Origin: Methanobacteriota archaeon
Lineage (GTDB): Archaea; Thermoplasmatota; Poseidoniia; Poseidoniales; Poseidoniaceae
Direction: 5' to 3'
DNA length: 50,806 nt
Assembly: GCA_002715725.1 (NCBI GenBank)
Contig: PAZU01000006.1
Coordinates: 1-50,806, forward strand
The notes beneath the pieces were generated by a model, which was not told the DNA's origin, did not search any database, and saw only the letters and a program-made list of their open reading frames with translations. The position numbers were made by a program, and so were the translations under genes. Shown here piece by piece: positions 32,485-50,806 of the stretch. The first letter of the stretch is position 1. Each line of letters opens with the position of its first letter.

Positions 32485-35400
32485 TTAGTCTGCCCATTCG
32501 CTCCATTCAGTAGTGCCAGGGTCGCGGTACCACCATGTACCATTTTCATCCTCGCCCCACTCAACATCTTCTTCATCAAGTCGGTAATCTGTCATCCAAT
32601 CTTCGCGACCACGCTCTACCAATGGAGGTCCAGATGGTCCTGCAGCAGCAGGAGGCTGTTCTTCTTCCTCTTCGTATTGATAATCATCATCGTCGTCATC
32701 ATCATCGTAATCAGACCCTCCAGAACGAAGTACCATTACTATGACAACCAGTAATACAATCACTACAAGAATTGCGAGAATTCCACCAGCATAGTACAGG
32801 GTTCCTCCTGCCTCAAAGAATCCCATGAAGGTGCCTTCGACCACTATTGTGTCAGAGACTTCCTTGTTGTGAACAGATATGGTTACAGTTTGTTCTTCTG
32901 CATCAAGTGTAGTTATTGTCCACTTACCATTTTCTGTTAACTCAGCAGACATCCTACCTGTTAACTTGACTTGAGTTTCAGGTGGTACAGGGATTTCATT
33001 CTCCCAAGCATCGAATGTTCTAACCTCGATATTGAATGTCTCCAACTGCAGTACCGAATCATCGACAATAGTCAACTCTATTCTGTTCACAGTTTGATGA
33101 GCGACAACGGTTACTGTCCAAGTATCTTCAGCACCACTCGGTGAGCGGAACTTGAAGGAATGCTCACCTGCTGTTGTCGCACTCCAGTTGTATTCTCCTC
33201 CTGATCCTTCGATTGTAGAGGCTGGAACGGCCTTATTGTCCTGAGTCCATAGAACGCTCTCAAGGAATGTATTTCCATCAGCATCGGTTCCCGTGATAGT
33301 TAGATCGTACACATCTCCGGCCTTCGCAGTATTTGCGATAACACCAATTTCAACAGTTACAGCATCTCCATGTTCTACTGAAATAGTAACTGTCTCGGAG
33401 ATATTGTATCCGCTACTTGATATCGCCCAAGCCGTGATTGACCAGTTCCCAACAGCAGTTGCTTCCCATACACCAGCATTGCCTACGATTATCGAGGTAA
33501 TGTCCGAGGTTTCTCCGGAATCAAGATTCTCTAATGTATAGGAGACTATGGATGAATCGATTATATTTCCATCACTATCTGTCAATTGTGGAAGGAACTG
33601 CAAACTGTTGTCTGCATCTATATTCTGATTCAAACTCACAGGTTGAATCAGTGAAACGCTCACTAAATCACCATTGTCAACAGATATGTCTAGAGTAACT
33701 TCGATCGTGACATTAGCATCGTTGTAAGTAGCACGTAGTGTGTAGAATGTATCAGATGCAAATATTGGAACAAACATTGTTGTTGAACCGTATGTCATTT
33801 CTTGCAGCACACTTTGGTCAGTGAACTGATTATGCTCAATAGTCCATGCAACATTCTCAGTCCATCTGTTACCATCAGAATCGACAGCCTTGACCTTGAT
33901 TGTGATTTCATCATCAGCTGTAATCTCTTGAAGTGAACCGGTTGAATCTACAGAATCAATTACAAGAACTAGTCCGGTAATCGCACCTTCACTAACTTGT
34001 ACAACGACGCTGCTCTCCATTCCAGCATAACTTGCAGTTAGGGTCTTTGAACCACGTCTTTGTGCATGCCATTCTGCAGGCTGCCCTGCAGTTATCATTC
34101 CATCACTAATAGTCCAATTCTCATGAGGTATCACCACAGATAGTCGGTTACCCATGATATCGATTCTAGTCGTATTTAGCCAGACAATATCATCTGCAGT
34201 AACAAATGTCTCCGATGCGTTCACCTCTAGACTCATCATTTCCCCATGGGTAATCTGAATTGGAATTTCATGGTAAATTCCACCGGTCGAGGTCATGTTG
34301 ATGACATAGTTTCCAACAGTCATTGCGAAGAATGTCCCATTGGATTCAGTAAATACTCCACCGCCTACGGTCCAAGAAATCCCTCCACCTACTTCGAGGT
34401 TGAGCATATTTCCAAACTGGTCGTGTAATGTCCAATTCAGTTGACAAGTTTCTCCAGCGTGAATTATATCCTCGCAACCTGTTGTTTCATAGTAAACCGG
34501 TAAGCCGCCGACTACAGTGATTGTTACATCGATAGTCTGAGTCCCCCAGCCGACAGTTACAGTTTGTACACCAGAATTGTACGGTGCGAAGACTTTGACC
34601 TGTTGCATTGAACCATTTGTCACTTGGTAAGTGATTAGTTCTCCTCCGACCTCGTTACCATGTTGATCCTCAACATGGGCAAAAATCGTGAAGTATTCAT
34701 CTGCAGTAATTGTAGTGGAAGTGTCCTCAACTACTAGAGTCATAGGTGCACCAGGGGTTACAGTGATTGATTCAGTAGTACAAATAACTCCGAAACATGC
34801 AGTCACATCGTGAGTTCCTACAAACTGAGGAGTGAACATTCCAGTAGAGTTAATGCTACCGTCACTAACTGACCAAACTACATCTTCAGCTACCATTCCT
34901 CCCAACGCATCGTTTAGAATGTGTGAGAATTGTACTTGTGTATCTGCATCAGTGGTAGAACCGGATGGTGAGATAGATACAGAATGAACATCTGTATAAT
35001 TGATCATAATCTTTGGTCTTTCATCCAATGAGTTTTCGCTGGAATAGAATTCAACCCATGAAGGTGAACCTGCAGGAGTACTTGCAATAACAATCCAAGC
35101 ATGGTCTCCATCCATCTGCATACTAGCATAACCAATATCTAACCAAACTTCAGTGGTTCCAGAATTAATTGTGACACTCGAGATTGGTGTTGAATCATAT
35201 TCTACACCAGCTGCCATACCGCCTGCACTCCATGGAATACCTGCTTCAGAGTTATTCCATGTAGAACCTGCTTGAGACCAAGCGTTAGTCAGTAATCTGT
35301 GAACGCTTAATGTCATGGTTCCTGCTGCAGCAGATTCGACTTGCAAATTGATTGAAGCCGAATGAATCTTAGCTGCCATAGGTAGAGGAATCTGGCTGTT

Positions 35401-38400
35401 ATCAAGAGCAAATATCATCCTACATTCAGTATTTGCTCCTTCACAATTGGTACCAACCAACATTGATTCAGAACCGTGGTTCATGTTAACAAATCCGCTG
35501 CCAATGTAAGAATCTCTGATGTTGGTGTGTCCTAAATCTGCGACTTCATTTCCGGTTTGGAATGTATATGTCCATGTGTGGTCATTGTTGTATGAGTGGT
35601 CTACAGGACTGCCAATAGCAAACGCTCTGCGGCTTGATGAAGGCCCAGGAATTGAACCGTTAATCGCTTGAACCCACCATGTGTAAACTTCTCCAGCGGT
35701 AAGGTCTTGACTAAATGTAAACGTGGTTCCGTTTATCTCAGTATCTTCCCATGATTTGTATTTCATTTCACCGTTAGTATCTGCAATTGTTACAACGTAA
35801 CCAGTTGCATCGGATACATTGTTCCATGTCAACTGAGGTTTGTCAAGGGATTCTAACTCCCATGTGCTTGTATTGTACAGGATATCTCCATCTCCGGGAT
35901 AGGTTAGAGTTGGTTGTCCCGGAGGGATAACTCCGTCAACATTGTCAACATAATCCAAAACAAGTTTTGGTCTGTATTGGCTGTGGAAGTTATCGTGGAA
36001 TGAATGTCCAGAACTTGGAGTTCCTACCGATTGCAGCATGATAGTTAGAGTGTCATTTCCGTTAGCAGCATTGGATTGTGCTAGTGAAGTAATGTCCCAT
36101 ATTTGCCAACCATTTGTTGGTGTTACTAACATCGTTGAACGAGTAACTTCACTCGAAGAGCAGGTTGGTGCAGTGTTCCATGTCACTGTATCTTCTGCAA
36201 ATGTATCACAAGCATGTGCACTGACAGTCAGAGAAGATGTGCCCGTTACATTGTGTCTGTAAAGCGACAATAATGCGTTTGTAGGCGTCATAGCAGTAGG
36301 GAATGGTAATTCGGATAGGTCGAAAGTTAGGTAAATCTTTGATTCTCCTGAGCCACCTGAAGAGATTCCCAAATCCAATTGTCCATTTTCGCCAAGTGCA
36401 GAATTAGCTCTATTGGAATCAATTGTAGCATCAGGAACGCCAGGCAAATCACCAGTGTCCTCAAACACTGAGCCTTGATACAAAGTTACAGTATTGTTTC
36501 CAGCGCCATCATCACTTCCAATTTCACCAGGTACTCTGAAAGAACTGACTGGAGACCATTTGCCGAGCCGATGGTCTTGGTCAGCTCTTACTCTCCAATA
36601 AAGCCAGTAATCTCCAGTAATGTTATTTTCAATTGTGTAGGCCAAGTTGGAAAGATCCCATATTCCGTCGAATGTACCGTTATCGGTGAAATCGTACAGG
36701 AAAGTCCGGTTTTCAATTGTGAAAGATGATTCTGTAGAGTATTCCATTATCCAACGTGTTTCGTTGTTTACAGATGAACTCCAGTTCATTGTAGTAATAT
36801 CTGCGCCACGAGGTCTTGAAGCAGTCTCATTCCAAATGGTCTCGCCATCTAGAGGATACAGGTTTGTTGGTTTAGATGGGAGCCACTGTGTTCCCGTTCT
36901 CCATTCTAGACTTAATTCAGGCCTTTTTGTCTCGTCAGATGTGTAGTCGCTACTAGCGAAATGCCATTCATCAGTTGTATCATTAATTATCCAGAATGCT
37001 AGATTTACTTTGTCAGTTCCATTTGCATGGGCATGTTGAACAGCGTAGGTGATATCAAAATCAACTGTGTAATCCTCATGATCCATACTTGTAATTTCGA
37101 ATGGTGTATCGCAACCTGAACTATGAGCCTGTTCAGTGTAAGCCGAATTGCCACCAGTAGGGCCGTTCCATGTTGCGCTCTCGTTCCATTCATCAAAAAT
37201 TTCGCACACTGCTATTCTTATGCTCTCCTGTCCATTCTCTCCACCGCTTAGTTTGTTTAATGTCAGTGTGGCAGAGATGAATTCATGTGATGCCGGAATA
37301 GGCATGCTTGACCAATTAACCATCACAAAGGAAACAGACCTGTAATTCAAGGAAGAAGATAGATTAGATCTACCCATCAATAGGCGCTGTGAAGATTCAT
37401 AGGCGGAATTTGTTGAACCTGAATCAATATATGTGTCCATGAAAATGGCTGGATATTCTAGGGCATCTACAATTTGTCCTTCTTGTAGAGAAATTTCTGC
37501 ATCTGTTGAATTGATGCTATTTCCAGTTGCTGCAGGAATGTGGAAGATTGTGTCTTGTCCTTTTGCTCCAAGAATGTCATCGGTAATAGGTTGAACAAAC
37601 CATTCGTATGATTCTCCAGTAGAGAGGTTGTCTGGAGATGTCCAAGCCAAATTAGTAAGATCCCATCCTTCAGAAGAATCACGACTGTCATAAACAGTCC
37701 AACCTGCTCTTTCATCGTTGTAATCTTCCCAGATGAAAATTCTCCAATCATCTACATTTGATGAGTTAGGATGGCTCCATGTGAAACTTGGTGTTGCTCC
37801 TGGTAGCAAAGCATGTGTGGAAGTGTCCCATATGATTTCATCAACTGTTGGGTTAGTATTTGTTCCAGCAACTTCAGGAGATGATGCATTTCCGCTGGAC
37901 CATGTTAGATTTAGCCATGGCCTTTCATTTGCCGTTCCATCAGTAGATGAGAAAATAGTTTGACCCTCGCCAATTGAACCCACTATCATCAGTGAAAGGT
38001 GGGTTTCACTATTTGCAAACGCATCTTGTACCAACTCAGTGACATCAAATTCCATCCAGTCAGCAGAAGCACCTTGTTGAACATCAGACATTCCACCTCG
38101 GTCGGATGTTCCCATCGCACCGGGGCTAGACCAATTGTTTACTCCGTCGTATGTTGTTCCGTTTGCACTAGTATTCCATGCAACTAGTGCAGGATGAATT
38201 GAAACTGCATTTCCTGTGTCAGAGCCGAATTGCGCATACATTTTCAGTACAGCATCGGAGATGTGTGCATTTTGCGGGTTGGGCAATTCGGTAAGTGGAA
38301 TCTTGATTAGAGCAGTCGCATTTTCACCGGCTGAACTAGTTCCGACCTTGAAAGTCGAAGACGACGATTGATCTGAAGTTGCTCCAACGCCAGAATCTGC

Positions 38401-41400
38401 AACCCACGTATCTATGAAATTAGGTAGATTTAGTGCTGGCATAGCTTGTCTGTGATGAAGTTCGACAGCAGCGGTATTAGAGTCAATACTCCAAGTGGTG
38501 ATGTCAGGAAGCAAGAAGTGGAATGGTTCTGACCAATTTCCAATTTGGTTTGTAGCACTGGTTGCTCTAACTCTCCAATACCAAGTATTGCCAGTTTCCA
38601 GTGTTGAGGTCATATCGAATGTTTGGTTGGTTATGTTGAAACCAGTATCTGTCCAACTTGTCGCCATTATCAAATCTGGAGAATTGAAAGTTGAAGTTGT
38701 ATCCATCTCGATGGACCAGCCACCAATGCTAACTCCTGCTGAAGATAAATTCCAAGATAACTGAGGCGAGGTTTCCGGTGCAGGATTTATTCCATTTTCA
38801 ACCGACCACGAGCCATTAAGTGGTGATTGAGGTACAGGTTCTGAAGGCAATGCATCGGAACCAGGAACATACACAAATGAAATCTCAGGCCTGTTAGCAG
38901 CATTCGCACTGTTTGGATAGAAGAGTGCATCTCTATCACCGCCAGAGCCGACTCCAATAATTCCCAGAATTAAATCCACAGAGCGATTTTCACGCATTGC
39001 ATTTTGTACAGCTAGAGTGATGTCCAACTCAACCCAATCCCCTGCAGAATAGGAGTTGCCCAACGATTCGGTATCCAATAGTCCTGCTCTTTCCCATCCT
39101 TTGGCTCCGCTGGTTCCCCAACTGTTTGTACCATCATAGGTTGACCATGTTGCGACTGATTCTGACCAGTTGTGTTGTCTGCTTTCCCATGCGCCCAGTG
39201 TTGGAGTTCCTGAAGGATAATCTGCTAATCTCATCTTGAGAGATGCAGTCTTTACAGCATAGCCACTTGGTAGTAGGTGGCTTGTGAGATCACAACCAAT
39301 CAAAATTGAAGTTTCAGAAGGGAAGGTATTGTATGAAACTTGCATTTCATCTTCGCCATTGTAGTTGTTACTTGCAGTACCGCTGTCGATGTAAGTATCC
39401 TCGCAACTCGGAGCATCTCCTGCGGTTGTAGCATTACCATGTGCTAGTCTCAAACGGTGCTCATCATCTTGCAAATATTCAGATTCTAATCCTGAAACTA
39501 GGAACGAAGATGTTGACCACCAAGAGTGGTGATGGGAACTAGAGTCCACTTGTGCGAGCCTCCAGTGATACATTACTCCATCTTGTAGGGAATCGTTCCC
39601 GGGCACAGACCAGTTTCCATCGGTTTCTGTGAACTCTGATGTTGTTGCAGTATTGAACGAGCGTACAATGTTTCTGTATTCTGAATCAGTAGCAACCTGC
39701 ATCAGCATGTCACCACTCCATGATATACTGCCATCCCAAGACAGTGTAGGCATTGTGTTTCCAGATAGATTGTCGCCGGAAAGATTCCACACTGGATAGC
39801 CATCCAAAGGTGAGACATGGCTAGGGCTTGCAGGCGGCCCATTACTCCCCCAATCGTAGGTGATTTCTAGGGAAGGCTGGTCACAGCCTGTAGCTTCTGT
39901 GCTGCAGAGATTGACGAACTTCGAAGAAGATTCTTCGATACCCCAGGTAGATGCAACCATCATCAATTCAATGGAATCAGATGTTGAAGTTGCGCTGGAA
40001 GATGCAGCATTATTGTCGTCGATCCACTTTTGGATTGCAGCGGTGAGGTTGACTTCAATAGTCGATGAAGATTGGTCGCCTTCGAATAGACCTACAGACA
40101 TTGATGGCATTCTTCCGCCATCATCCCAGTAGTATGTTCCATCGTACTTTCTCCAAGTTACACCTGTTTCAGTCCAGTCTTCTCCATCCATGATGTGGAA
40201 ACTGACAACTGGAGACCCACTGAATGAGAGTCGTTCTAGTGACAATATTGCAGAAACTATCGATGAGTTGTCGTGCATACCGATGTCATCGAGGTTTATT
40301 CTTAGCAATCCATATTGGTCTGTTGAAGACGATGAGCCGACAGTAATGTTTCCATCACTGCCCATGTTTGTATTCTTAGCAACGTTACTTGAATCGATAA
40401 ATGAATCTTCGATTGTTTTCTCAACCAATCCTAAATCGTCGAAACTGAATGAGAACTGGCCATAACCGTCTACAAGAGATACAGAATGGCCAGGTAGATG
40501 GAAATTACCAGTGTTCCAAGCCCCAATAGTTCCTGCGGAATCAATTGCTCTCATCCTGTAGTACATTGTGGTAGAGTTGGATAACTCATGTCCATTTGGA
40601 ACGACCATTGAACCTTCTCCAGCAGCAGTATTAATTGTGAACAAAGAAGAGTTGTCAATTGTGTTGTAATACCAAGCACTATCCGAATCAGATTTGAAGT
40701 CGATGTTGTTTGACAATTGTACCTGAGCATTGTTTCCAGACATGCTTACCCATGATAGTTCAGGATTTGTTGCCGCTTTCAGAAGGAATTCATCCTCATC
40801 CATTAATGCAGCACCATCATCGACGAAGTTAGGTGCCAGACTACCTCCATTGGAATGTGTTCCATTTTGATGGGTAATTGAGAGAGATGGTCTGCTGCTT
40901 GAATCTGTGGATTCAGACATGTGGCAAGTGTATTCGCTACCGGTAGCAGCCAAAATAATGTCAATAGAACCTCGGGAATTAATTACTGCGTCTTGAACAA
41001 TAGCGGTTACGTTGATTGTGAAAGTATTGTTTGCATATCCGTAAAATGGAGGCTCCCATGCGCCATGGTCAGAATCATCGTCTGCACCAGACAATCCCCA
41101 ATTTTGTCCATCATCTGGACTATTCCAAGTTACATTTGCTTCATCCCATGACGTTTTCAATCTAGATGAGAAAATATCGATAGTTCCAATTGTCAGAGGA
41201 TCGATACCGCAAGTCAACTCAAGTGTAGAATCGGTGACCATGTCACCGCTTGGAACCGAATTGTTGAACGAAATCAGAATACGTGATTCACCAGAAACAC
41301 CCAAGCCCAAGGTGGCGGTTTCATCACTTCCATAGTTCGAATTTGGATTCGAAGATTGGATTCCTGCATCCTTGCTAACATTGAATGAGGATGTTGTTTG

Positions 41401-41541
41401 CATGAAGGTTATTGGTTCGTCCAGTTCATTGTTTGTCCAGTTAGGGACTGCTTGTGGCAGAGCTAAATCTGCGAATAAAAACATCAAAACCAATAGCAAA
41501 GAAGTCGTAATTTTACGGCGGTCACGGCTGTTCGTCGACAT
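32485..41541 (-). CDS. Giant (3018 aa) surface protein: ~8 DNRLRE-like + Fn3-like module pairs, then Big_2-like Ig array, TM, acidic tail
   Basis: A single uninterrupted ORF with a signal peptide. Recurrent (D/E)(T/S)(Y/F)I(D/S)SG..(N)..(G) ... h.F.L..(I/L)P ... I..A.L.L modules alternate with P..P.PL(D/N)G...P.L(S/T)W...YYWR(V)RA-type modules (aa ~40-2180). Ig-like repeats span aa ~2185-2930. TM, then D8/E5 runs and the terminal NGTWWYRDPGTTEWSEWAD. Confidence 0.9.
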   Translation of the reverse strand: MSTNSRDRRKITTSLLLVLMFLFADLALPQAVPNWTNNELDEPITFMQTTSSFNVSKDAGIQSSNPNSNYGSDETATLGLGVSGESRILISFNNSVPSGDMVTDSTLELTCGIDPLTIGTIDIFSSRLKTSWDEANVTWNSPDDGQNWGLSGADDDSDHGAWEPPFYGYANNTFTINVTAIVQDAVINSRGSIDIILAATGSEYTCHMSESTDSSSRPSLSITHQNGTHSNGGSLAPNFVDDGAALMDEDEFLLKAATNPELSWVSMSGNNAQVQLSNNIDFKSDSDSAWYYNTIDNSSLFTINTAAGEGSMVVPNGHELSNSTTMYYRMRAIDSAGTIGAWNTGNFHLPGHSVSLVDGYGQFSFSFDDLGLVEKTIEDSFIDSSNVAKNTNMGSDGNITVGSSSSTDQYGLLRINLDDIGMHDNSSIVSAILSLERLSFSGSPVVSFHIMDGEDWTETGVTWRKYDGTYYWDDGGRMPSMSVGLFEGDQSSSTIEVNLTAAIQKWIDDNNAASSSATSTSDSIELMMVASTWGIEESSSKFVNLCSTEATGCDQPSLEITYDWGSNGPPASPSHVSPLDGYPVWNLSGDNLSGNTMPTLSWDGSISWSGDMLMQVATDSEYRNIVRSFNTATTSEFTETDGNWSVPGNDSLQDGVMYHWRLAQVDSSSHHHSWWSTSSFLVSGLESEYLQDDEHRLRLAHGNATTAGDAPSCEDTYIDSGTASNNYNGEDEMQVSYNTFPSETSILIGCDLTSHLLPSGYAVKTASLKMRLADYPSGTPTLGAWESRQHNWSESVATWSTYDGTNSWGTSGAKGWERAGLLDTESLGNSYSAGDWVELDITLAVQNAMRENRSVDLILGIIGVGSGGDRDALFYPNSANAANRPEISFVYVPGSDALPSEPVPQSPLNGSWSVENGINPAPETSPQLSWNLSSAGVSIGGWSIEMDTTSTFNSPDLIMATSWTDTGFNITNQTFDMTSTLETGNTWYWRVRATSATNQIGNWSEPFHFLLPDITTWSIDSNTAAVELHHRQAMPALNLPNFIDTWVADSGVGATSDQSSSSTFKVGTSSAGENATALIKIPLTELPNPQNAHISDAVLKMYAQFGSDTGNAVSIHPALVAWNTSANGTTYDGVNNWSSPGAMGTSDRGGMSDVQQGASADWMEFDVTELVQDAFANSETHLSLMIVGSIGEGQTIFSSTDGTANERPWLNLTWSSGNASSPEVAGTNTNPTVDEIIWDTSTHALLPGATPSFTWSHPNSSNVDDWRIFIWEDYNDERAGWTVYDSRDSSEGWDLTNLAWTSPDNLSTGESYEWFVQPITDDILGAKGQDTIFHIPAATGNSINSTDAEISLQEGQIVDALEYPAIFMDTYIDSGSTNSAYESSQRLLMGRSNLSSSLNYRSVSFVMVNWSSMPIPASHEFISATLTLNKLSGGENGQESIRIAVCEIFDEWNESATWNGPTGGNSAYTEQAHSSGCDTPFEITSMDHEDYTVDFDITYAVQHAHANGTDKVNLAFWIINDTTDEWHFASSDYTSDETKRPELSLEWRTGTQWLPSKPTNLYPLDGETIWNETASRPRGADITTMNWSSSVNNETRWIMEYSTESSFTIENRTFLYDFTDNGTFDGIWDLSNLAYTIENNITGDYWLYWRVRADQDHRLGKWSPVSSFRVPGEIGSDDGAGNNTVTLYQGSVFEDTGDLPGVPDATIDSNRANSALGENGQLDLGISSGGSGESKIYLTFDLSELPFPTAMTPTNALLSLYRHNVTGTSSLTVSAHACDTFAEDTVTWNTAPTCSSSEVTRSTMLVTPTNGWQIWDITSLAQSNAANGNDTLTIMLQSVGTPSSGHSFHDNFHSQYRPKLVLDYVDNVDGVIPPGQPTLTYPGDGDILYNTSTWELESLDKPQLTWNNVSDATGYVVTIADTNGEMKYKSWEDTEINGTTFTFSQDLTAGEVYTWWVQAINGSIPGPSSSRRAFAIGSPVDHSYNNDHTWTYTFQTGNEVADLGHTNIRDSYIGSGFVNMNHGSESMLVGTNCEGANTECRMIFALDNSQIPLPMAAKIHSASINLQVESAAAGTMTLSVHRLLTNAWSQAGSTWNNSEAGIPWSAGGMAAGVEYDSTPISSVTINSGTTEVWLDIGYASMQMDGDHAWIVIASTPAGSPSWVEFYSSENSLDERPKIMINYTDVHSVSISPSGSTTDADTQVQFSHILNDALGGMVAEDVVWSVSDGSINSTGMFTPQFVGTHDVTACFGVICTTESITVTPGAPMTLVVEDTSTTITADEYFTIFAHVEDQHGNEVGGELITYQVTNGSMQQVKVFAPYNSGVQTVTVGWGTQTIDVTITVVGGLPVYYETTGCEDIIHAGETCQLNWTLHDQFGNMLNLEVGGGISWTVGGGVFTESNGTFFAMTVGNYVINMTSTGGIYHEIPIQITHGEMMSLEVNASETFVTADDIVWLNTTRIDIMGNRLSVVIPHENWTISDGMITAGQPAEWHAQRRGSKTLTASYAGMESSVVVQVSEGAITGLVLVIDSVDSTGSLQEITADDEITIKVKAVDSDGNRWTENVAWTIEHNQFTDQSVLQEMTYGSTTMFVPIFASDTFYTLRATYNDANVTIEVTLDISVDNGDLVSVSLIQPVSLNQNIDADNSLQFLPQLTDSDGNIIDSSIVSYTLENLDSGETSDITSIIVGNAGVWEATAVGNWSITAWAISSSGYNISETVTISVEHGDAVTVEIGVIANTAKAGDVYDLTITGTDADGNTFLESVLWTQDNKAVPASTIEGSGGEYNWSATTAGEHSFKFRSPSGAEDTWTVTVVAHQTVNRIELTIVDDSVLQLETFNIEVRTFDAWENEIPVPPETQVKLTGRMSAELTENGKWTITTLDAEEQTVTISVHNKEVSDTIVVEGTFMGFFEAGGTLYYAGGILAILVVIVLLVVIVMVLRSGGSDYDDDDDDDDYQYEEEEEQPPAAAGPSGPPLVERGREDWMTDYRLDEEDVEWGEDENGTWWYRDPGTTEWSEWAD

Positions 41542-41673: not shown

Positions 41674-42627
41674 ATGAGCGAACTCTGGGTTGAACGCCAT
41701 CGGCCTCGGACGGTCGGAGACATCCGCGGTCAATCCTCAGTCGTTCAACGATTGGCTTCCTATGCCAATTTGGCAGACTTCCCTCATCTACTATTCGCCG
41801 GACCTCCTGGTACCGGCAAAACAACTGCTGCAATGGCTTTGACAAGGGATGTTTTCGGCCCAGAATTCAGGAATAATCTATTGGAAATGAATGCAAGCGA
41901 TGAAAGGAAGTTGGAAAGCATCAGAACTAAAGTAAAACAATTTGCTAGAACTTCACCCTATGGAGATGCAAAATTCAAAATTATTTTCCTCGACGAAGCG
42001 GATGCCTTAACTCACGATGCACAGGGTGCATTAAGGAGAATAATGGAACAATATGCGCAGACTTGTCGCTTTATTCTATCATGTAATTATTCCAGTAAAA
42101 TTATCGAACCAATTCAGAGCCGATGTGCAGTGTTTAGATTCAGACCTCTTGCCGATGCCGATGTCTTAGAACAAGTCAAATATGTTGCTAATTCGGAAAA
42201 AGTTGGACTTGATGATGAAGCAGCTGAAGCACTAGTTAGAATCTCTCAAGGCGATCTAAGGAAGGCTATTACAGCACTCCAAGTTGCTGCTGCTCTGGAA
42301 AAAAATGTGTCACGTTCTCTGATCTATGAGACGAGTGCAACCGCTCCTCCAGAATCTCTTCATCAGTATCTAATGGCGTGCCGACAAGATGGATTCCATG
42401 CAGCACGTCGTAGATTACGAGAGTTACTTGACAAGTATGGTCTAGCAGGAACAGATTTTGTTAACCAATTACATCGAGAATTGTTTGGTGCAGATTTCTT
42501 GTCTGAAATTCAGAAGTTAGAACTTACAGAACTAATGGCTGAAATCGATTTCAGATTAGTCGAAGGTGGCGGTGAAGCAATCCAATTAGATGCCTTGACT
42601 GCAAGACTGTCAAAATTACTCAGTTGA
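41674..42627 (+). CDS. rfcS: Replication factor C small subunit
   Basis: LWVERHRP, PHLLFAGPPGTGKTT (Walker A), IIFLDEADALT (DEAD-like Walker B), SCNYSSKIIEPIQSRC (SRC motif) and GDLRKAI. Confidence 0.94.
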   Translation: MSELWVERHRPRTVGDIRGQSSVVQRLASYANLADFPHLLFAGPPGTGKTTAAMALTRDVFGPEFRNNLLEMNASDERKLESIRTKVKQFARTSPYGDAKFKIIFLDEADALTHDAQGALRRIMEQYAQTCRFILSCNYSSKIIEPIQSRCAVFRFRPLADADVLEQVKYVANSEKVGLDDEAAEALVRISQGDLRKAITALQVAAALEKNVSRSLIYETSATAPPESLHQYLMACRQDGFHAARRRLRELLDKYGLAGTDFVNQLHRELFGADFLSEIQKLELTELMAEIDFRLVEGGGEAIQLDALTARLSKLLS

Positions 42628-43847: not shown

Positions 43848-46610
43848 ATGAAGAGATTTTTCGATGGGATGACTAGTTTCAGTACAGAGAGGCCTAAAAC
43901 GACAATTGCGATAATACTGGTCTTCATTTTTTCATTGACTCCCAATGCTATGTTCATCAATTTTGACAACAGTGAAGATGCATTCTTTCCAGACAATGAA
44001 ACTGTTAGATTGCTAAATGAAGTTGAAGATGAATATCAAGCATCAATCGATTTCATACGCTTCATCGACGATATTGATTCAGGCGACCTGTATGAAGAAT
44101 CCACTTGGCAACAATTAGCAATGCTGGAAGCTATTTTGCTTGAGAATCAAGACTTAGAAGAGTACCAGTATCCGTTATTTGGAATACAGCCGAACAATGG
44201 CATGGCTAGTGCTGCAATACAGTGGCACAACTTGCAAGACCCACTAACTGCAAGTTCATGGATTGAGGATTTACAAATCGCTATCGATGCTGCTGCCTCT
44301 TCTGACAATGCTAGCCTGGCAAGTAATCTTGCAAATCTTACAGAAGCAGGAAACAATCTGCCAAGTCCAGAATTAGTCAGTGCTAGTGATTTGAGGAATT
44401 GGGTACCAGAAGATCCCAATTTATGGCTTGAAAGAATCGATAGTGGAGCTAATCTAACTTCAAATTTGTCAGTACTATCCCTCGACCTTACCAATCTAAT
44501 TCAAGGCCCGAACAGTAGTGAAATTGCAATGGTTGCAGGACCGATTTCCGGAAAAATTGGAATACTAATGGGTATGCAGTCAATTGATTATCGCTCAATG
44601 ATGATTTCTAACCTACCCGCTGAAGATTCAACCGAACCTTGGAACTCTGATGGTCCAGTACTCACTACTTTCGTTGTTGTAACAGAGCCAGGGGAACACG
44701 GTGTTGAAGTGATTGGAGATGTTCAAGAAAAGGTTTCTGAATGGGCTGACGAACTTGCCTCACAAGCCAAATCTGAAACTGGTGATTCAGAAATTACAGT
44801 ATTCTCATTTTCACAACTTGCAACAGGACAAAATGCAAATTTAGGCAAAGAATTGGGAATACTAAACTCCCTATGTTTGCTACTTCTAGGATTCATATTG
44901 TGGACAAAATTCCGAAGCAAGCGAGATACTGCAAATGTATTGATGCTTACAGTTCTAGCAATCCTGTCCACTTATGGTATGGCAGGATTACTGACTTTAT
45001 TGGGTGTGAAAATGGTATTCAATGCGGCAATGAATTCTATCCCAATTCTGTTGTTAGCAATTGGTGTTGACTATGGATTACACGTAGTGGCTAGAATTAG
45101 GGAGGAGTTACAAAACCAAGAGAAGGCCGACCCACAGGGTAGGGAAAATCTGAGAGATTTCTCTGTTGAAGCAAGAAGAATTGCCATTCGTAAAGGAACT
45201 ATACTTACCTCTGCAGCATTGATGGTTGCTATCTTTACAGACATGGTTGGATTCCTTTCATTCCGCTTCTCCTCACAGCAATTCTTAGTTTCATTCGGTA
45301 CAGTTATCGCAATAGGTTTGTTTTTCATCTATCTATTGAGTATCACTGCATTACCTGCATTGATGATGATTATACCACCAAAGAAATTGCCTTTAGAAAA
45401 GTCAGGGAAGAACGACATTGGTCCAATTTCATCATGGATAGGTTCACTTGTGCATGCTCCTCAAAAAGTGATATTGGTTGCGATATTAATTTCAGTTCCA
45501 ATGTTCCTTGGATTCCAACAATTGGAAGTTGGATTCGATACTAGAGAAAATTTCGATGAATCGGTTCCTGTTGTCCAAGATTTCTTCTTAATTGCCGATG
45601 AATTCCAAAGCAGCCCCTCTCCTTTGTATGCCGTGGTTGAAGGTAACGTTATTTCTCAAGATGGAAGAGAACTCTATGACAGTACCATTTCTGAATTGTT
45701 ACAAAATTCAAAGACAGCAGGTCTACCAGTTGGAATATGGGGGATATTAGAGGAATCTCGAGGAACAAATAGCGAACTAGATTCACTGATGAATGATTTG
45801 GGCGATGATGAATCGACTTGGTTTGCTCTAGAAACTTGGCTGCTCAGCGAAGCAGGAAGAAATATTTCTTCAGGAAATTTGAATTCTGATGCATCACAAA
45901 CCGTAATTTCGTTCCAAGCAGCAACTTTGAATTGGCAAGCTACTGTAGATTTTGAATCTGATTTGTCAAAGAATCTTACAGATTTAGCGAAGGAAAGCGA
46001 TGGAGAATTCACGGTTCAATTGTCGGGTAGATCTCTAATTGTAGCACAAGTCACTGCTGATGTAGCAGATTCTGCAGTCGTTTCTACAGGTACTGTTGCA
46101 GCGGTGATTTTGCTAATGCTCGTTGGAATAAATACAGTGAGGCAAAAAAATGTAATTCGAGGCGTAGCGAGAGGTTTCGTAACTTGGGTTCCATTGATGG
46201 TAGTAGTTGTATGGGTCTATGGAATAATGGGCCTTACTGGTTATCAATTGAACTCTCAAACAGTGACAATTGGTGCATTAACTCTTGGTTTGGGTGTTGA
46301 CTATGCCGTACACTTGACCACGAGGCTAGAAGAAGAAGTCGAGCATGCCCCAAGTGCTGACCCTGCCGTTTGGTCATCCAAAACTACCGCAACTACTGGC
46401 CGAGCAATGTTTGGTGCAGCATTAACAACTGCAGGTGGATTTTCAGTTCTAAATTTCTCATCACTTGTCCCATTACAATTGTTCGGACAGGTTTTCGTGG
46501 TTGCAATAGTTCTTGCATTAGTTTCTAGCTTGTTTGTATTACCGGCGCTGTACACTCCATTCCTCAAGCAAGATGCAAAGAAGTATCTTGCGAATACTGA
46601 GAGTGAGTAA
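43848..46610 (+). CDS. RND-superfamily transporter, MMPL / HAE3-like (hydrophobe/amphiphile exporter)
   Basis: A duplicated 1+5 TM architecture with two large extracytoplasmic loops. Paired signature segments GVDYGLHVVARIREE and GVDYAVHLTTRLEEE are typical of MMPL/HAE3 proteins. Confidence 0.85.
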   Translation: MKRFFDGMTSFSTERPKTTIAIILVFIFSLTPNAMFINFDNSEDAFFPDNETVRLLNEVEDEYQASIDFIRFIDDIDSGDLYEESTWQQLAMLEAILLENQDLEEYQYPLFGIQPNNGMASAAIQWHNLQDPLTASSWIEDLQIAIDAAASSDNASLASNLANLTEAGNNLPSPELVSASDLRNWVPEDPNLWLERIDSGANLTSNLSVLSLDLTNLIQGPNSSEIAMVAGPISGKIGILMGMQSIDYRSMMISNLPAEDSTEPWNSDGPVLTTFVVVTEPGEHGVEVIGDVQEKVSEWADELASQAKSETGDSEITVFSFSQLATGQNANLGKELGILNSLCLLLLGFILWTKFRSKRDTANVLMLTVLAILSTYGMAGLLTLLGVKMVFNAAMNSIPILLLAIGVDYGLHVVARIREELQNQEKADPQGRENLRDFSVEARRIAIRKGTILTSAALMVAIFTDMVGFLSFRFSSQQFLVSFGTVIAIGLFFIYLLSITALPALMMIIPPKKLPLEKSGKNDIGPISSWIGSLVHAPQKVILVAILISVPMFLGFQQLEVGFDTRENFDESVPVVQDFFLIADEFQSSPSPLYAVVEGNVISQDGRELYDSTISELLQNSKTAGLPVGIWGILEESRGTNSELDSLMNDLGDDESTWFALETWLLSEAGRNISSGNLNSDASQTVISFQAATLNWQATVDFESDLSKNLTDLAKESDGEFTVQLSGRSLIVAQVTADVADSAVVSTGTVAAVILLMLVGINTVRQKNVIRGVARGFVTWVPLMVVVVWVYGIMGLTGYQLNSQTVTIGALTLGLGVDYAVHLTTRLEEEVEHAPSADPAVWSSKTTATTGRAMFGAALTTAGGFSVLNFSSLVPLQLFGQVFVVAIVLALVSSLFVLPALYTPFLKQDAKKYLANTESE

Positions 46611-46973
46611 TCAAACTGCTCGGTCTTCAAGTAATTCTAGAGGAATGATTTCCAGCGCCTTGACATTGGTTGCTTCTAAATCTACAGGGCATGCTTGTCC
46701 ATGGTTCAAAGCGTCGAGCCATGTACGCGCGCATACACACCATGAATCACCTGGCTTTAGGCCTGGGAAGTTGAAATGCGGTGCTGGTGTAATCAAATCA
46801 TTGCCTTTAGATTTAGCAAATTGCAGGAATTCTTCGGTAACGATAGCGCATATCGTGTGGGAACCCCTGTCCGAATCATCTGTGTTACAATGTCCATCAC
46901 GGTACCAGCCGGTTAGAGGCTTGCATGAGCACTCTCCGATATCATTGCCTATCACATTCTTCTGAGCGCCCAT
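46611..46973 (-). CDS. DUF2237-family protein
   Basis: LTGWYRDGHCNTDDSDRGSHTICAIVTEEFLQFAKSKGNDLITP...FPGLKPGDSWCVCARTW...LEAT matches the conserved DUF2237 pattern as I remember it. Confidence 0.85.
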   Translation of the reverse strand: MGAQKNVIGNDIGECSCKPLTGWYRDGHCNTDDSDRGSHTICAIVTEEFLQFAKSKGNDLITPAPHFNFPGLKPGDSWCVCARTWLDALNHGQACPVDLEATNVKALEIIPLELLEDRAV

Positions 46974-47019: not shown

Positions 47020-47226
47020 TCATCTTGGCATAAAGAAAGTATTGGCCCATATTCCAATTGCCATAACTATGTACAAAATCATGCAAAACCAGAATGTTTT
47101 GGGGGCAAATTCTCTTGTTACCCATCCTTTTCCCTTTGCATGTACGCCTTGATTTACCCAGCAATAACCGGCATATAGTAGAATCATTATTGAGATTACT
47201 AAATTGATTATTAGTCGAATTTCCAT
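47020..47226 (-). CDS. Small two-TM membrane protein, hypothetical
   Basis: A 68-aa ORF with two hydrophobic helices separated by a basic loop (HAKGKGWVTREFAPK). It lies 8 nt after the upstream gene on the same strand. Short, and no family recognised. Confidence 0.4.
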   Translation of the reverse strand: MEIRLIINLVISIMILLYAGYCWVNQGVHAKGKGWVTREFAPKTFWFCMILYIVMAIGIWANTFFMPR

Positions 47227-47234
47227 CTAATCAC

Positions 47235-47993
47235 CTATAGTCCACCTTGAGGGGGATTTCCGAAATCAGGTTGTGACATGTGAGTCTGATTTGGCGTAAC
47301 CGCTGGTGTTTGGGCACTGAGCATTTGATTGCCTGCAGGAGGCATGTACATCATTTCCTGGTTTTTGTTGTCCTTCATGGTTAATGCCATGATTCCACCA
47401 ATTATCAAGAATAAAACTCCACAGCAAATGCTGCCGGAACCGCCAACGAATCCGAGAATCATTATTCCTATGTCGTCACCCAATTCTTCACCAACCTTCT
47501 CATCATAGGTTACCCAGACACTTTGATTTGACTCAAATGAAACATTTCCTGCATAACATCCCCAGCAAGCACGGCCAATCTTGACTAGACCCTTGTTATC
47601 TCGATCATAATTCGTGTTTTTGTCATTAGCATCACATTGCTGATTTGCTTGAACTTCGTTGTAGAAATTACCATCTAACAATTCAGCCCATTCCCAAGAA
47701 TTGTTCACATCAGGACTTTCTGTGATTGTAACTTCGGTGTTTTGACAGACATCCCAGATGTCATTTCCATCCTTGTCTTCATAAACACCTTTAACCCAAA
47801 AAGTCAGCCCGACATCTCCCTTTCCATCTACGTCTTCAATCATGATTGTTCCATTAGTGGCATCTTCAAATTCAAATGTGTTCCAACTGTCTTTCAAGTC
47901 ATCTACTTGGCCTGCTCCTAATGCAAAACCTACAATGCCGATGACGGTTGCAATCGTTCCTATAATGAGTAATACTTTTGCTGCTGTATGCAT
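47235..47993 (-). CDS. Hypothetical bitopic membrane protein with Cys-containing extracellular domain and Pro/Gln-rich tail
   Basis: N-terminal TM (VLLIIGTIATVIGIVGFAL), a ~150-aa acidic domain with 5 Cys, a second TM (ICCGVLFLIIGGIMAL) and a P/Q-rich end. It lies 12 nt downstream of the SPFH gene. Confidence 0.6.
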   Translation of the reverse strand: MHTAAKVLLIIGTIATVIGIVGFALGAGQVDDLKDSWNTFEFEDATNGTIMIEDVDGKGDVGLTFWVKGVYEDKDGNDIWDVCQNTEVTITESPDVNNSWEWAELLDGNFYNEVQANQQCDANDKNTNYDRDNKGLVKIGRACWGCYAGNVSFESNQSVWVTYDEKVGEELGDDIGIMILGFVGGSGSICCGVLFLIIGGIMALTMKDNKNQEMMYMPPAGNQMLSAQTPAVTPNQTHMSQPDFGNPPQGGL

Positions 47994-48005: not shown

Positions 48006-48923
48006 TTAGTTTAGAGATCCAGTGTTGACTACAGGAGTAGTGTCCGTCTCAGAACAAAGTACTACCAGCAGGTTGCTAACCATGGTTGCTTTCTTATCTT
48101 CATCTAGTTCGATGATTCCCTTTGTACTCAATTGTTGTAGTGCAAGTTCGACCATTCCGACTGCACCATCAACGATCTCTCGTCGTGCCGCAACCACTGC
48201 ACTTGCCTGTTGGCGGCGTAGCATTGCTTGTGCAATTTCTGTAGAATATGCAAGGTAAGAGATTCTAGCCTCCAATACTTGGATACCAGCTCTTGCTAGG
48301 CGGGCCTCAACAGATTGTTGCAATTGTTTTGCAATCTCATCTTGGTGACTGGATAGAGTAATTCCTCCGATGTCTTTCTCTTCAATAGCATCGTAAGGAT
48401 ACTTAGTTGCCATTTCACGAAGTGCGGCTTCACTTTGGATTTGTACGTAATGTCCGTAATTTTCCACTTCGAACATAGCCTCTGCAGCATCATAAACCTT
48501 CCAAACAACTACTGCCGCAATATCGATTGGGTTTGCGTTAACATCGTTAACTTTCAACTTGCTAGATTCGAAGTTGTTAATCTTGAACGAGATCTTGGAT
48601 TTACTGTAAAGTGGGTTGAGGAAGAATCTGAAACCTTCAGTCTTTAATGTTGAAACGTATTTTCCAAAGAACTGATTTACAACTGCTTCATTTGGATTTA
48701 CAATCACGTATGAATTCCACATTACTAACCAAATAGGGCCAGTGATAATCAATAGAAGTGCGCCTGGTCCGGTGGCGGTTAATCCTAAATTGAATACACT
48801 CAGTACCAAATGGATGGCTACGCCAATGAATCCATTAATCGATTTCGCATCTTTGTCTTTAAATTGGGGCTCTGTTTGTGGAACCACTACTTGATTCGGT
48901 ATGCTAACGGCTGCGGGCTGCAT
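48006..48923 (-). CDS. SPFH/Band 7 (stomatin/prohibitin-like) domain protein
   Basis: An N-terminal membrane hairpin is followed by an SPFH core (VIVNPNEAVVNQFFGKY ... IDIAAVVVWKV ... ALREMATKY ... GIQVLEARISYLAYSTEIAQAMLRRQQA). Confidence 0.88.
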   Translation of the reverse strand: MQPAAVSIPNQVVVPQTEPQFKDKDAKSINGFIGVAIHLVLSVFNLGLTATGPGALLLIITGPIWLVMWNSYVIVNPNEAVVNQFFGKYVSTLKTEGFRFFLNPLYSKSKISFKINNFESSKLKVNDVNANPIDIAAVVVWKVYDAAEAMFEVENYGHYVQIQSEAALREMATKYPYDAIEEKDIGGITLSSHQDEIAKQLQQSVEARLARAGIQVLEARISYLAYSTEIAQAMLRRQQASAVVAARREIVDGAVGMVELALQQLSTKGIIELDEDKKATMVSNLLVVLCSETDTTPVVNTGSLN

Positions 48924-48988: not shown

Positions 48989-50806
48989 TCAATCATTTGA
49001 TTGAGGCTCATCGCTAGAATCTTCAATACTATCTTCGACATCACCAGTGAGTTCAGTTGCCTCTGGTTCATCTCCCCATTTTGATTCACCAACTGGATCT
49101 TGTTCTCCCTTGAAAATTAATACAGCACCAACAAGCAGTGATGACAAACCTACAATCCACAGGCTAAGAGCAACATAGTCAGCCCAATGGTCAAAGTTGG
49201 TAAAGAATGCAAAGAAATCTTGGTTGGTTACAATCTGAGATTCCATTGTTTCAGCAGTTTCATCATCGAGTTCAGCAGATGTTTTGATGACGAAAACTTC
49301 CTGCAAATCAGATTGTTCAGGAGCAGTCTTTTGGTCCGTGATATTTCTTGTATCTAGCCAGAAAGTCGATTCCGATTGTCCACCGATGATGGCGCCACTT
49401 AATTGCTCTACTTTGACTTCGACATCACTGCCAAAGAAAACCGGTAATGCTCCAGGAATAGCGTCGAGAAGTTCACCACTGTTGATGAGTTTGGCTTGAA
49501 TCGGCCTGTTCAGCGGGTCCATGCTTGCTGTACAAACGTCTACAGGAATCCCTTTCAGTGTACTCTCTTTTTCACAATAAACATCAGCAGTGCCGTATCC
49601 TGATAAGTCAACTAAATCACCTTCTCCAGTAATGAATCCACCAGTGGTCTCGCCTTGTAATTCAGCTGTAATCAAACCGTAAGTGTCCTTTTGCTTAGAC
49701 AGGTTTCGCCAACTGACATACTCACTATCACCGACTTGGATGGTTTCACCCTTATCGCAAGAATCAACTTCACCGGTACAAATCGTGATTGTAGATGGAT
49801 CTCCTGTGGATATACCTCCTTCAACATAGGCGGCAGAACCGAAGAATGTCTCATTTGCTTCAAGACTTGTCCAACCAGAGGTCATATTTTCTGAATCTCC
49901 AGTGTCGAGATACGCATTTACTGGGTCGTGCCATCCTAGCAACCAGTTGTTGACCGACTGAGTGAGATACTTGCTGGTTCCAAAGGAATCGATTAGGAAA
50001 TCAGGTACGAAATTTTTGAACACTACTTCCATCATCAGTAACTTTGCTGCGCCTGCTGCTTCCACGTCAATTCCGTAAATTTCTGCAACTGTTTCGTTTG
50101 TCCACTCTCTGGCATCTGCATATTCTTCAGTTGTATAATTGATAGGCAGGGTTTTGCCGCTTAATTCACCGTAAAGGAACATATTAGCACCCTTGGCTGT
50201 AGTTAGACCCCAATCGCCGTACAGCATTTCTGCACTTTGTTCTTGAGTTAGGTCGATTGGGTCTGAATCGGGGAATCCATATGTTCCAGTACCCCACATT
50301 CCACCAATATTGAGAGAGTATTCCATGTAACTATCATCGATAGGATTGATTGAACCAAATGTTTGGTTTACGAATTGTGATGCCGAAATATATCCCTCTC
50401 CGCCAACTAAAATTAGTGGTAAAGTGGCGATATTATCCATCCAATCACTACAATAATCCTTCAAAACTTGATGTTGGTTTCCGGTTATTCCGTATGTAGA
50501 AATTGCAGTATCCTTATCCATTTCAAGGAATTCAGATAGTCCAAACGAGGTTCCGGATTCACTAACTGCTAGAATCCCCATTGGGTCATCAGTTCCATCA
50601 CCCATAGTTAGTAAATCGACTGCAACTTCATCCTCTATCTCAATTCCAAACAAGCGTTCTACTCTTACTGAAAGATTTACATCATCTTCAGAGTAATCGG
50701 TCAAGTAGTCATCATTGCCTGCTCCATATTCGAGCATCAATGCACCCATTCCTCCATACAGAGTCCAATCTCTTGCGAGAGTAACATTTAGATCTGTAGG
50801 GTGTGC
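48989..50806 (-). CDS. Large membrane-anchored surface protein, 5'-partial (open to window edge); C-terminal ~290 aa tentatively CD36/LIMP-2/SR-B-like
   Basis: The reading frame stays open upstream of the tracked Met (AHPTDLNVTLARDWTLYGG-M...) to nt 50806. C-terminal TM ALSLWIVGLSSLLVGAVLIF plus an acidic tail. CD36-like collinear motifs are listed in the findings. Confidence 0.8.
   Translation of the reverse strand, partial: AHPTDLNVTLARDWTLYGGMGALMLEYGAGNDDYLTDYSEDDVNLSVRVERLFGIEIEDEVAVDLLTMGDGTDDPMGILAVSESGTSFGLSEFLEMDKDTAISTYGITGNQHQVLKDYCSDWMDNIATLPLILVGGEGYISASQFVNQTFGSINPIDDSYMEYSLNIGGMWGTGTYGFPDSDPIDLTQEQSAEMLYGDWGLTTAKGANMFLYGELSGKTLPINYTTEEYADAREWTNETVAEIYGIDVEAAGAAKLLMMEVVFKNFVPDFLIDSFGTSKYLTQSVNNWLLGWHDPVNAYLDTGDSENMTSGWTSLEANETFFGSAAYVEGGISTGDPSTITICTGEVDSCDKGETIQVGDSEYVSWRNLSKQKDTYGLITAELQGETTGGFITGEGDLVDLSGYGTADVYCEKESTLKGIPVDVCTASMDPLNRPIQAKLINSGELLDAIPGALPVFFGSDVEVKVEQLSGAIIGGQSESTFWLDTRNITDQKTAPEQSDLQEVFVIKTSAELDDETAETMESQIVTNQDFFAFFTNFDHWADYVALSLWIVGLSSLLVGAVLIFKGEQDPVGESKWGDEPEATELTGDVEDSIEDSSDEPQSND

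Follow-up and report, generated by a model that had tools for sequence, protein, structure and literature searches.

The 50,806-nucleotide stretch analysed here, contig PAZU01000006.1 of a Poseidoniaceae archaeon (GenBank assembly GCA_002715725.1), is referred to as the window. At its end lies a minus-strand open reading frame (ORF) truncated at the 5' end, and the protein to which it belongs is very probably a true member of the CD36/scavenger-receptor class B (SR-B) family, if a highly diverged one. The ORF encodes 605 residues, about the C-terminal two-thirds, of a protein of ~967 amino acids (aa) from a Marine Group IIa (MGIIa) archaeon of the Poseidoniaceae. The best-matching full-length orthologue, P0001 (967 aa), shows 96% identity across 100% of the fragment, and residue i of the fragment is residue i+362 of P0001. 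The C-terminal half to two-thirds of the ectodomain barrel is encoded in the window (49202-50083) and the N-terminal remainder lies outside. Homology to CD36, LIMP-2 and the SR-B proteins had been proposed in a preliminary description of the fragment and is now supported by Pfam scores, profile alignment, Foldseek ranking and the presence of hydrophobic segments at both ends of the protein.

Family membership of the full-length orthologues

Homologues of the fragment number in the hundreds (~840), and full-length members of the archaeal family are 843-1007 aa long. Twenty of these orthologues were scanned singly against the Pfam CD36 model (PF01130) and all 20 pass its gathering score of 26.5 bits, with 32.7-70.5 bits and E-values of 4e-8 to 1e-19; P0001 scores 50.4 bits. 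A set of 45 full-length members, filtered at 80% identity, was matched to CD36 throughout at E <= 0.1 (best 1.3e-19). The strong match covers ~aa 40-190 of the full-length protein (Pfam positions ~20-170), a region outside the window, and BLASTP of P0001 against human CD36 gives an E-value of 1e-5, again in the N-terminal part. A profile built from the 45 sequences and run against all PDB sequences returned eight matches, exclusively CD36 and LIMP-2 chains, at E 7e-4 to 1.4e-3. A 27-sequence family profile likewise found CD36 and LIMP-2 alone. Additional sub-threshold HMMER stretches of the family profile coincide with motifs 1 and 5 of the fragment (Table 1), and LIMP-2 127-163 is the part of the PDB sequence that is aligned to the motif 1 stretch.

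The window-encoded half of the ectodomain

It had been claimed that five motifs of the fragment follow each other in the same order as in CD36. All five are present and collinear, and the CD36 strings were quoted correctly (starting at residues 168, 282, 337, 368 and 412) when compared with the human CD36 sequence used here, which is identical to PDB 5lgd_A, residues 1-472. The W, G, W and D residues of motif 1 are invariant across the family, the letters LKGIPV are the same in motif 2 and in CD36, and motif 5 comprises the last barrel strand and a membrane-proximal helix (strand 863-874 and helix 877-890 in the AlphaFold2 (AF2) model of P0001). The distance from the end of motif 5 to the transmembrane helix is 18 aa. 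The motif list by itself does not justify the homology claim, since pairwise scores of the last 320 ectodomain residues of the fragment against CD36 150-440 fall inside the distribution of shuffled sequences. In a Smith-Waterman alignment z is 0.9 and 52 of 300 shuffles score as well or better, and in a semi-global alignment z is 1.6 with 22 of 300 shuffles as good or better.

A different picture is obtained with profiles. Default hhalign over the whole length aligned the N-terminal part alone because a large insertion splits the domain. The family alignment was therefore cut into three pieces, and each was compared by hhalign with a CD36-side profile of two sequences, CD36 and LIMP-2, together with a reversed-template control. 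The N-terminal piece (P0001 30-200) gives a probability of 94.7 and an E-value of 6e-8 (reversed control 0.54), and the insertion (P0001 200-600) gives an E-value of 0.25, close to that of its reversed control (0.34). The C-terminal piece (P0001 600-900, which is fragment aa 238-538) aligns collinearly with CD36 141-442 with a score of 35.6 and an E-value of 5e-4 (reversed control 0.06); across runs this E-value ranges from 5e-4 to 2e-3. The alignment of the C-terminal piece reproduces all five motif pairings as first proposed and adds further pairs, among them TICTGE with YKVFNGK and YVSWR with LSYW. Shuffling of alignment columns gives scores of 15.1 +/- 2.4 for this piece, with a maximum of 24.4, so that none of 150 shuffles reaches the observed score (z 8.5); for the N-terminal piece z is 20.7. 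The similarity of the window-encoded region is therefore well above chance at the profile level. Shuffled controls had been named as a way to refute the motif reading and they cut both ways: single-sequence matches are comparable to shuffles, but profile matches are not. The conserved motifs are thus collinear over the whole ectodomain and not at the N-terminus alone, as the alignment of the C-terminal half with CD36 133-443 shows.

Three further similarities were considered and set aside. Phage_portal is matched (Pfam E 0.03-0.05) in just 2 of the 45 members. A stretch resembling acyl carrier protein (ACP) at fragment aa 21-71 (50594-50746, minus strand; PDB 2n57 E 0.08, NCBIfam ACP E 0.085) lies in the apex insertion and is probably a chance match; it was rejected since the family does not conserve the serine that aligns with the phosphopantetheine serine of the ACP DSL motif. 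A FixC match in a phmmer search of the fragment against PDB sequences (E 0.16) was also taken as chance.

Predicted fold and topology

The ectodomain is predicted to be an asymmetric antiparallel beta-barrel of the CD36 type. The AF2 model of P0001, made from a 27-sequence alignment, has a mean predicted local distance difference test (pLDDT) value of 69.5 and a predicted template modelling score (pTM) of 0.51. On the N-terminal side it contains a helix at aa 4-19 followed by strands in 63-139, and on the C-terminal side strands in 700-874, the helix 877-890 of motif 5 and the transmembrane helix 903-927. Between these sides lies a long, mostly helical region, ~146-640, in which some stretches reach a pLDDT of 80-93. 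When the full model was compared with the PDB by Foldseek the top 13 matches were LIMP-2 and CD36 chains (E 7.8e-6 to 5.8e-3, probability 1.00) over ~290-320 aligned columns, with target-normalised template modelling scores (TM-scores) of 0.36-0.40 for the eleven matches at E <= 1e-3. The next four matches were LmcA chains from Mycobacterium smegmatis, with only noise beyond them. The last 365 aa of the window part modelled alone gave a pLDDT of 50.7, and this model was used solely for Foldseek ranking; its top 17 matches are all LIMP-2, CD36 or LmcA (E 1.4e-4 to 1.7e-2). Structure prediction, which had been suggested as a check on the homology, thus places LIMP-2 and CD36 first and LmcA after them. 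The fold assignment is based on the specificity of this ranking and on the sequence evidence rather than on tight superposition, as the TM-scores are below 0.5.

The ORF had been described as ending in a single transmembrane helix with an acidic tail, and this is confirmed (Table 1). The last 36 residues of the tail include 14 Asp or Glu and 1 Lys or Arg. A test for an N-terminal transmembrane segment beyond the end of the window had been suggested. A Kyte-Doolittle scan found a hydrophobic segment at the N-terminus as well as at the C-terminus in 45 of 45 full-length members, the N-terminal one being possibly an anchor or a signal peptide. Paired terminal hydrophobic segments around one large ectodomain correspond to the hairpin topology of CD36. 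The window-encoded part of the ectodomain contains nine N-x-S/T sequons and five cysteines, four of them at columns that are invariant in the 27-sequence alignment. The sequons and the cysteines are compatible with a position outside the cell.

Conservation within the family is highest in the barrel half, which has many invariant aromatic and glycine residues. The doubled size of the protein is due to the apex insertion of ~490 aa, about P0001 aa 146-640, which makes up about half of the protein and is mostly helical in the AF2 model. No relative of the insertion was detected by hhalign against CD36 and LIMP-2, where its E-value of 0.25 is about that of the reversed control, or as a meaningful Pfam match. 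The N-side hhalign alignment extends as far as CD36 179 and the C-side one sets in again at CD36 133/141, which is the position of the apex helices. The helices at either end of the insertion align to CD36 133-179, and the position of the three-helix apex itself is held by the insertion. Eukaryotic SR-Bs of more than 500 aa carry lineage-specific helical expansions at the apex position (PMC10715195). The three-helix apex is not strictly defining for the family because apex architecture varies among its eukaryotic members (PMC10715195).

Eight cysteines of P0001 are invariant in the 27-sequence alignment: C49, C54, C126, C134, C705, C712, C773 and C787. The disulfides of CD36 are C243-C311, C272-C333 and C313-C322. 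In the hhalign alignment of the C-terminal part the family cysteines are not aligned with those of CD36, so the metazoan disulfide pattern was not found there. The pattern has been described as a metazoan feature (PMC10715195) and so does not define the family as a whole.

An indel of ~55 aa in the apex insertion, at P0001 aa ~258-296 (outside the window; ~10770-10890 in locus L014), carries two Asp-rich DxDxDG-like loops, WNDDGDGILEPDE and GDLNENGIIDNE. From their sequence these loops look like Ca2+-binding sites. The indel is missing from P0046 and other members.

Distribution and gene neighbourhood

One genome per species of GTDB was scanned, which gave 97 relatives, and 78 loci were kept. 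All 78 belong to Poseidoniales, Poseidoniaceae or Poseidonia or to generically named euryarchaeal metagenome-assembled or single-amplified genomes. One of them, L014, is from a Poseidoniales single-cell genome and is 97% identical to the fragment. Divergent members (28-35% identity) cluster with proteins of the Thalassarchaeaceae, Marine Group IIb (MGIIb). The family is found in Poseidoniales, in both MGIIa and MGIIb, and the search for orthologues in other genomes of the order, which had been suggested as a check, does find them. Identity ranges from 28% to 99% across the order, and this order-wide conservation implies a selected function. Among 1.84 billion representative proteins 266 relatives were found at E <= 0.001, ~17 of them full length, and there was no short version (~450 aa) of the protein among the best 150 of the 266. 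A scan of viral contigs gave no viral relatives.

Contigs that bear the gene reach 1.5 Mb and have archaeal neighbours including RFC, LonB and pyruvate kinase genes. The gene order at the window end is pyruvate kinase, the CD36-like gene, SPFH, a 252-aa and a 68-aa membrane protein, DUF2237, MMPL (convergent), orf300 and RFC, where the position of pyruvate kinase past the window end is inferred from L014. This order is common only to relatives at >= ~63% identity, some of which do not have SPFH, and none of the window neighbours is present at ~50 loci at <= 56% identity.

Table 1. Features of the window, with the truncated CD36-like gene first; residue numbers are those of the encoded fragment unless stated otherwise
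Feature	Position	Strand	Details
5'-truncated ORF	48989-50806	-	605 sense codons and stop; frame open at the window end
Apex insertion, second half	50093-50806	-	aa 1-238; family-specific, mostly helical
CD36-homologous C-terminal part of ectodomain	49202-50083	-	aa 242-535; collinear with CD36 133-443
Motif 1, SKYLTQSVNNWLLGWHDP	49922-49975	-	aa 278; pairs with CD36 168-185, SMFQVRTLRELLWGYRDP
Motif 2, ESTLKGIPVDV	49535-49567	-	aa 414; pairs with CD36 282-292, DVNLKGIPVYR
Motif 3, ALPVFFG	49430-49450	-	aa 453; pairs with CD36 337-343, RPVYISL
Motif 4, STFWLDTRNITD	49334-49369	-	aa 480; pairs with CD36 368-378, RTYLDIEPITG
Motif 5, VFVIKTSAELDDETAETMESQI	49232-49297	-	aa 504; pairs with CD36 412-434
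C-terminal transmembrane helix, YVALSLWIVGLSSLLVGAVLIF	49112-49177	-	aa 544-565; helix 903-927 in the AF2 model of P0001
Acidic tail behind the helix, presumably cytoplasmic	48992-49111	-	aa 566-605 (40 aa)
SPFH/Band 7 gene	48006-48923	-	Pfam E 1e-22; 65 nt downstream of the stop codon of the CD36-like gene, same strand
252-aa protein	47235-47993	-	N- and C-terminal hydrophobic segments, Cys/Asp-rich middle, weak DUF4064 match
68-aa membrane protein	47020-47226	-	
DUF2237 protein	46611-46973	-	E 2e-50
MMPL-family transporter of the resistance-nodulation-division (RND) type	43848-46610	+	920 aa; Patched-SSD match; convergent, 2.4 kb from the CD36-like gene
RFC small subunit	41674-42627	+	
Archaeal LonB protease	6123-8198	-	

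The preliminary description had stressed that the gene lies directly upstream of an SPFH gene. This adjacency is real in the window, and SPFH is directly downstream in 19 loci, all at >= 68% identity. It is no family trait, however, but a matter of synteny within the clade: it is missing in L018, L020-L022, L028, L005/L029 and all of the ~50 loci at <= 56% identity. The 252-aa and 68-aa proteins accompany the SPFH gene in the clade of the window. Flotillin-like proteins have been reported as core genes of Marine Group II (MGII) archaea (PMC6336850). An MMPL gene lies within 0.5-3 kb in 14 related loci, and this proximity too is limited to the clade of the window; it recalls the mycobacterial PgfA-MmpL3 pair. 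LIMP-2/NPC1-type pairings are a further parallel. Both SPFH and MMPL were rejected as family-wide partners since the neighbours switch completely between clades. The DUF2237, LonB and RFC genes are ordinary archaeal genes and confirm the host. Farther from the window end, a 3018-aa ORF (32485-41541, minus strand) contains six CBM96 stretches together with Ig-like and fn3 domains and is, judging from these domains, probably a giant glycan-binding protein exposed on the surface.

Possible function and alternative explanations

To our knowledge, all proteins of the CD36 fold that have been characterised, LIMP-2 with its lipids among them, accommodate lipids in a tunnel or internal cavity. Lipid handling by the archaeal protein is suggested for this reason. 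CD36 has been found with palmitate and LmcA with internal cavities (PMC8972800), PgfA, whose fold resembles that of CD36, interacts with both MmpL3 and an analogue of trehalose monomycolate (TMM) (PMC9678360), and the tunnel is conserved across eukaryotic SR-Bs (PMC10715195). Further reasons for suggesting it are that all Poseidoniales genera encode fatty-acid degradation, that proteins and lipids derived from particles are regarded as the food of MGII, and that the two studies reporting this name no fatty-acid uptake system for the group (PMC6461757, PMC6336850). The protein would sit on the cell surface, like CD36, LIMP-2, SR-BI and the mycobacterial LmcA and PgfA. Its enlarged apex may capture hydrophobic ligands; the most plausible ones are long-chain fatty acids, or other lipids, that come from particles and algal debris. 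These ligands would then reach the cytoplasmic membrane at its outer face, having moved either through the barrel or along it, and may feed the fatty-acid degradation pathway. This mechanism is plausible but, taken by itself, somewhat doubtful; the joint claim of a CD36-family homologue with a lipid-uptake mechanism is considered rather likely.

Several observations weigh against this proposal. The fragment reaches only 12.8 bits (E 0.042) with the Pfam CD36 model, below the cut-off of 26.5 bits, over aa 241-362 (profile positions 123-235). The Pfam comparison that had been recommended as a check therefore fails on the fragment, yet it succeeds on the full-length orthologues, and the weak score is explained by the best-matching N-terminal region lying past the window end. 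The TM-scores are low (~0.39 for the full model, target-normalised, and ~0.3 for the window part) and confidence in the models is moderate or low. Genes related to lipids are not consistent companions of the family, whose neighbours differ completely between clades. Lys164 of CD36, which is implicated in fatty-acid binding, aligns to a serine in the hhalign pairing. Ligands of protein or glycan nature would suit the enlarged, variable apex just as well.

Two explanations would remove the homology or the archaeal origin of the gene. That the motifs match by chance in an unrelated archaeal surface protein would agree with the pairwise scores, which are no better than those of shuffles, with the E-value of the fragment in Pfam and with an hhalign probability of just 15-30% for the C-terminal half. 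It is nevertheless very improbable, as all full-length members pass the Pfam gathering score, the column-shuffle z values are 8.5 and 20.7, the profile matches in the PDB are exclusively CD36 and LIMP-2, the top Foldseek matches are exclusively of the CD36 fold and the topology with two anchors agrees. A eukaryotic gene that arrived by contamination, mis-binning or very recent transfer might be suspected because the family is otherwise eukaryotic in the literature (PMC10715195). This is barely conceivable given archaeal neighbours such as RFC, LonB and pyruvate kinase on contigs of up to 1.5 Mb, the presence of the gene in 78 or more species-level genomes of Poseidoniales, some of them from single cells, the MGIIb members at 28-35% identity, and the conserved synteny within the MGIIa clade of the window (>= ~63% identity). 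The sequences are also far too divergent from the Pfam model for a recent import, and viral relatives are absent from the viral contigs scanned.

Other proposals accept the homology and differ in what the protein would do. It might act in an outward lipid relay with the RND/MMPL pump, as PgfA does, and deliver exported lipids to the cell envelope, its S-layer or lipoglycans. The MMPL gene 2.4 kb away and its recurrence in 14 related loci would agree with such a role, as would the rank of LmcA and PgfA as next-best structural matches behind LIMP-2 and CD36, sub-threshold matches to PF11271 in 9 of 45 members and the interaction of PgfA with MmpL3 and the TMM analogue (PMC9678360). The linkage is absent, however, at every locus at <= 56% identity and at the P0070 loci, and the two genes are convergent and therefore not co-transcribed. 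Poseidoniales have, as far as is known, a single membrane and so less need of a periplasmic lipid relay. The sequence is nearer to eukaryotic CD36 (33-70 bits) than to DUF3068 (<= 18 bits), and the family profile did not retrieve LmcA from the PDB sequences, so that the relay appears quite unlikely. An adhesin or receptor, in which the barrel is a membrane-anchored stalk and the apex binds non-lipid ligands such as algal or particle polymers or partner cells, is unlikely as well, though a little less so; such a protein could also be a virus receptor. It would account for an apex that forms half of the protein, for which no relative could be detected and whose length depends on the clade (proteins of 843-1007 aa), and for the one indel with Asp-rich loops, which are candidates for Ca2+ binding. 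Eukaryotic SR-Bs also recognise ligands at the apex and have lineage-specific apex expansions (PMC10715195), and attachment to particles has been proposed for MGII archaea (PMC6336850). Against it stands the conservation of the barrel half with its many invariant aromatic and glycine residues, which suggests that the barrel itself is functional and no passive stalk; Pfam scans of the fragment and of full-length members revealed no adhesion-type domain. Lipid uptake by a CD36-type surface protein is the reading favoured here.

Comparison with known systems

The preliminary description considered that a prokaryotic member of the family directly upstream of an SPFH gene would be new. No relevant paper was found in the literature searched on CD36 or scavenger receptors in Poseidoniales, Marine Group II, Asgard or Thermoplasmatota. 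The novelty was overstated in that NCBI has already named the homologue MCH2637922.1 'CD36 family protein [Candidatus Thalassarchaeum sp.]', automated annotation already assigns PF01130 to proteins of the family, and a bacterial family of the CD36 fold, DUF3068/PorA with LmcA and PgfA, has been published (PMC8972800). Surveys confined to eukaryotes have followed the SR-B/CD36 family back to the last eukaryotic common ancestor, and the family is discussed in the context of phagocytosis (PMC10715195). An archaeal family that occurs throughout an order and lies above the Pfam threshold raises the possibility that the fold is older than the eukaryotes, or else that it was passed from one domain to another in the ocean. 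A bolder interpretation, which we place on the unlikely side, is that the CD36/SR-B ectodomain is not a eukaryotic invention but belongs to a pan-domain superfamily in which the Poseidoniales proteins bridge DUF3068 and the SR-Bs in sequence, or was exchanged in ancient times between planktonic archaea and early eukaryotes, and that it is also the missing fatty-acid or lipid uptake device of MGII. MGII archaea, an uncultured group that is abundant across the globe, have been predicted to use proteins and fatty acids as food (PMC6461757, PMC6336850), and the protein is a candidate route by which they may acquire hydrophobic substrates. For structural studies it also provides a CD36-type ectodomain from a prokaryote, which may prove more tractable.

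With the eukaryotic CD36/SR-B proteins (CD36, LIMP-2/SCARB2, SR-BI, SNMPs) the archaeal family shares a Pfam gathering score that the full-length orthologues exceed, terminal hydrophobic segments that flank one large ectodomain, and a predicted asymmetric beta-barrel. Among the collinear motifs are GP(Y/V)TY close to the N-terminus, LLWGY/LLGWHDP, LKGIPV and the helix before the transmembrane segment. The family differs from them in its archaeal host, in its length (843-1007 aa versus ~470), in the ~490-aa insertion in place of the three-helix apex, in its long acidic, presumably cytoplasmic tail and in cysteines placed elsewhere than those of the metazoan disulfides. Identity is ~10-14% over the structural alignment. 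A large helical expansion on a conserved barrel, with a total of more than 500 aa, is also seen in the apex-expanded SR-Bs of Phytophthora, Tetrahymena and Dictyostelium (LmpA) (PMC10715195). The archaeal expansion is among the largest when set beside these. In the apex-expanded eukaryotic proteins the match spans, to our understanding, most of the Pfam model, whereas the archaeal match is strong over ~100-150 N-terminal residues only and weak elsewhere.

Among prokaryotes the comparison is with actinobacterial DUF3068/PorA (PF11271), represented by LmcA (PDB 7n3v, 7shw) and PgfA (MSMEG_0317), which has an extracytoplasmic CD36-like beta-barrel of the kind predicted for the archaeal protein. 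The LmcA and PgfA barrels are membrane-anchored and have internal cavities, and LmcA is the second-best structural match (E 1e-3 to 2e-2). Unlike the archaeal protein, LmcA has ~300 aa and no apex bundle, and DUF3068 proteins occur in Actinobacteria only and are tied to MmpL3 and mycomembrane lipids. PF11271 was matched at E <= 0.1 in 9 of 45 members (P0015, P0066, P0129 and others) in the C-terminal half of the barrel, with a best E-value of 6.7e-4; its cut-off of 29.5 bits was never reached in the scans that report scores, where the values are 15.3-17.8 bits. These matches hint at a position of the archaeal family between eukaryotic CD36 and actinobacterial DUF3068 in sequence space, and by the same scores the archaeal protein is closer in sequence to eukaryotic CD36 than to DUF3068/PorA.

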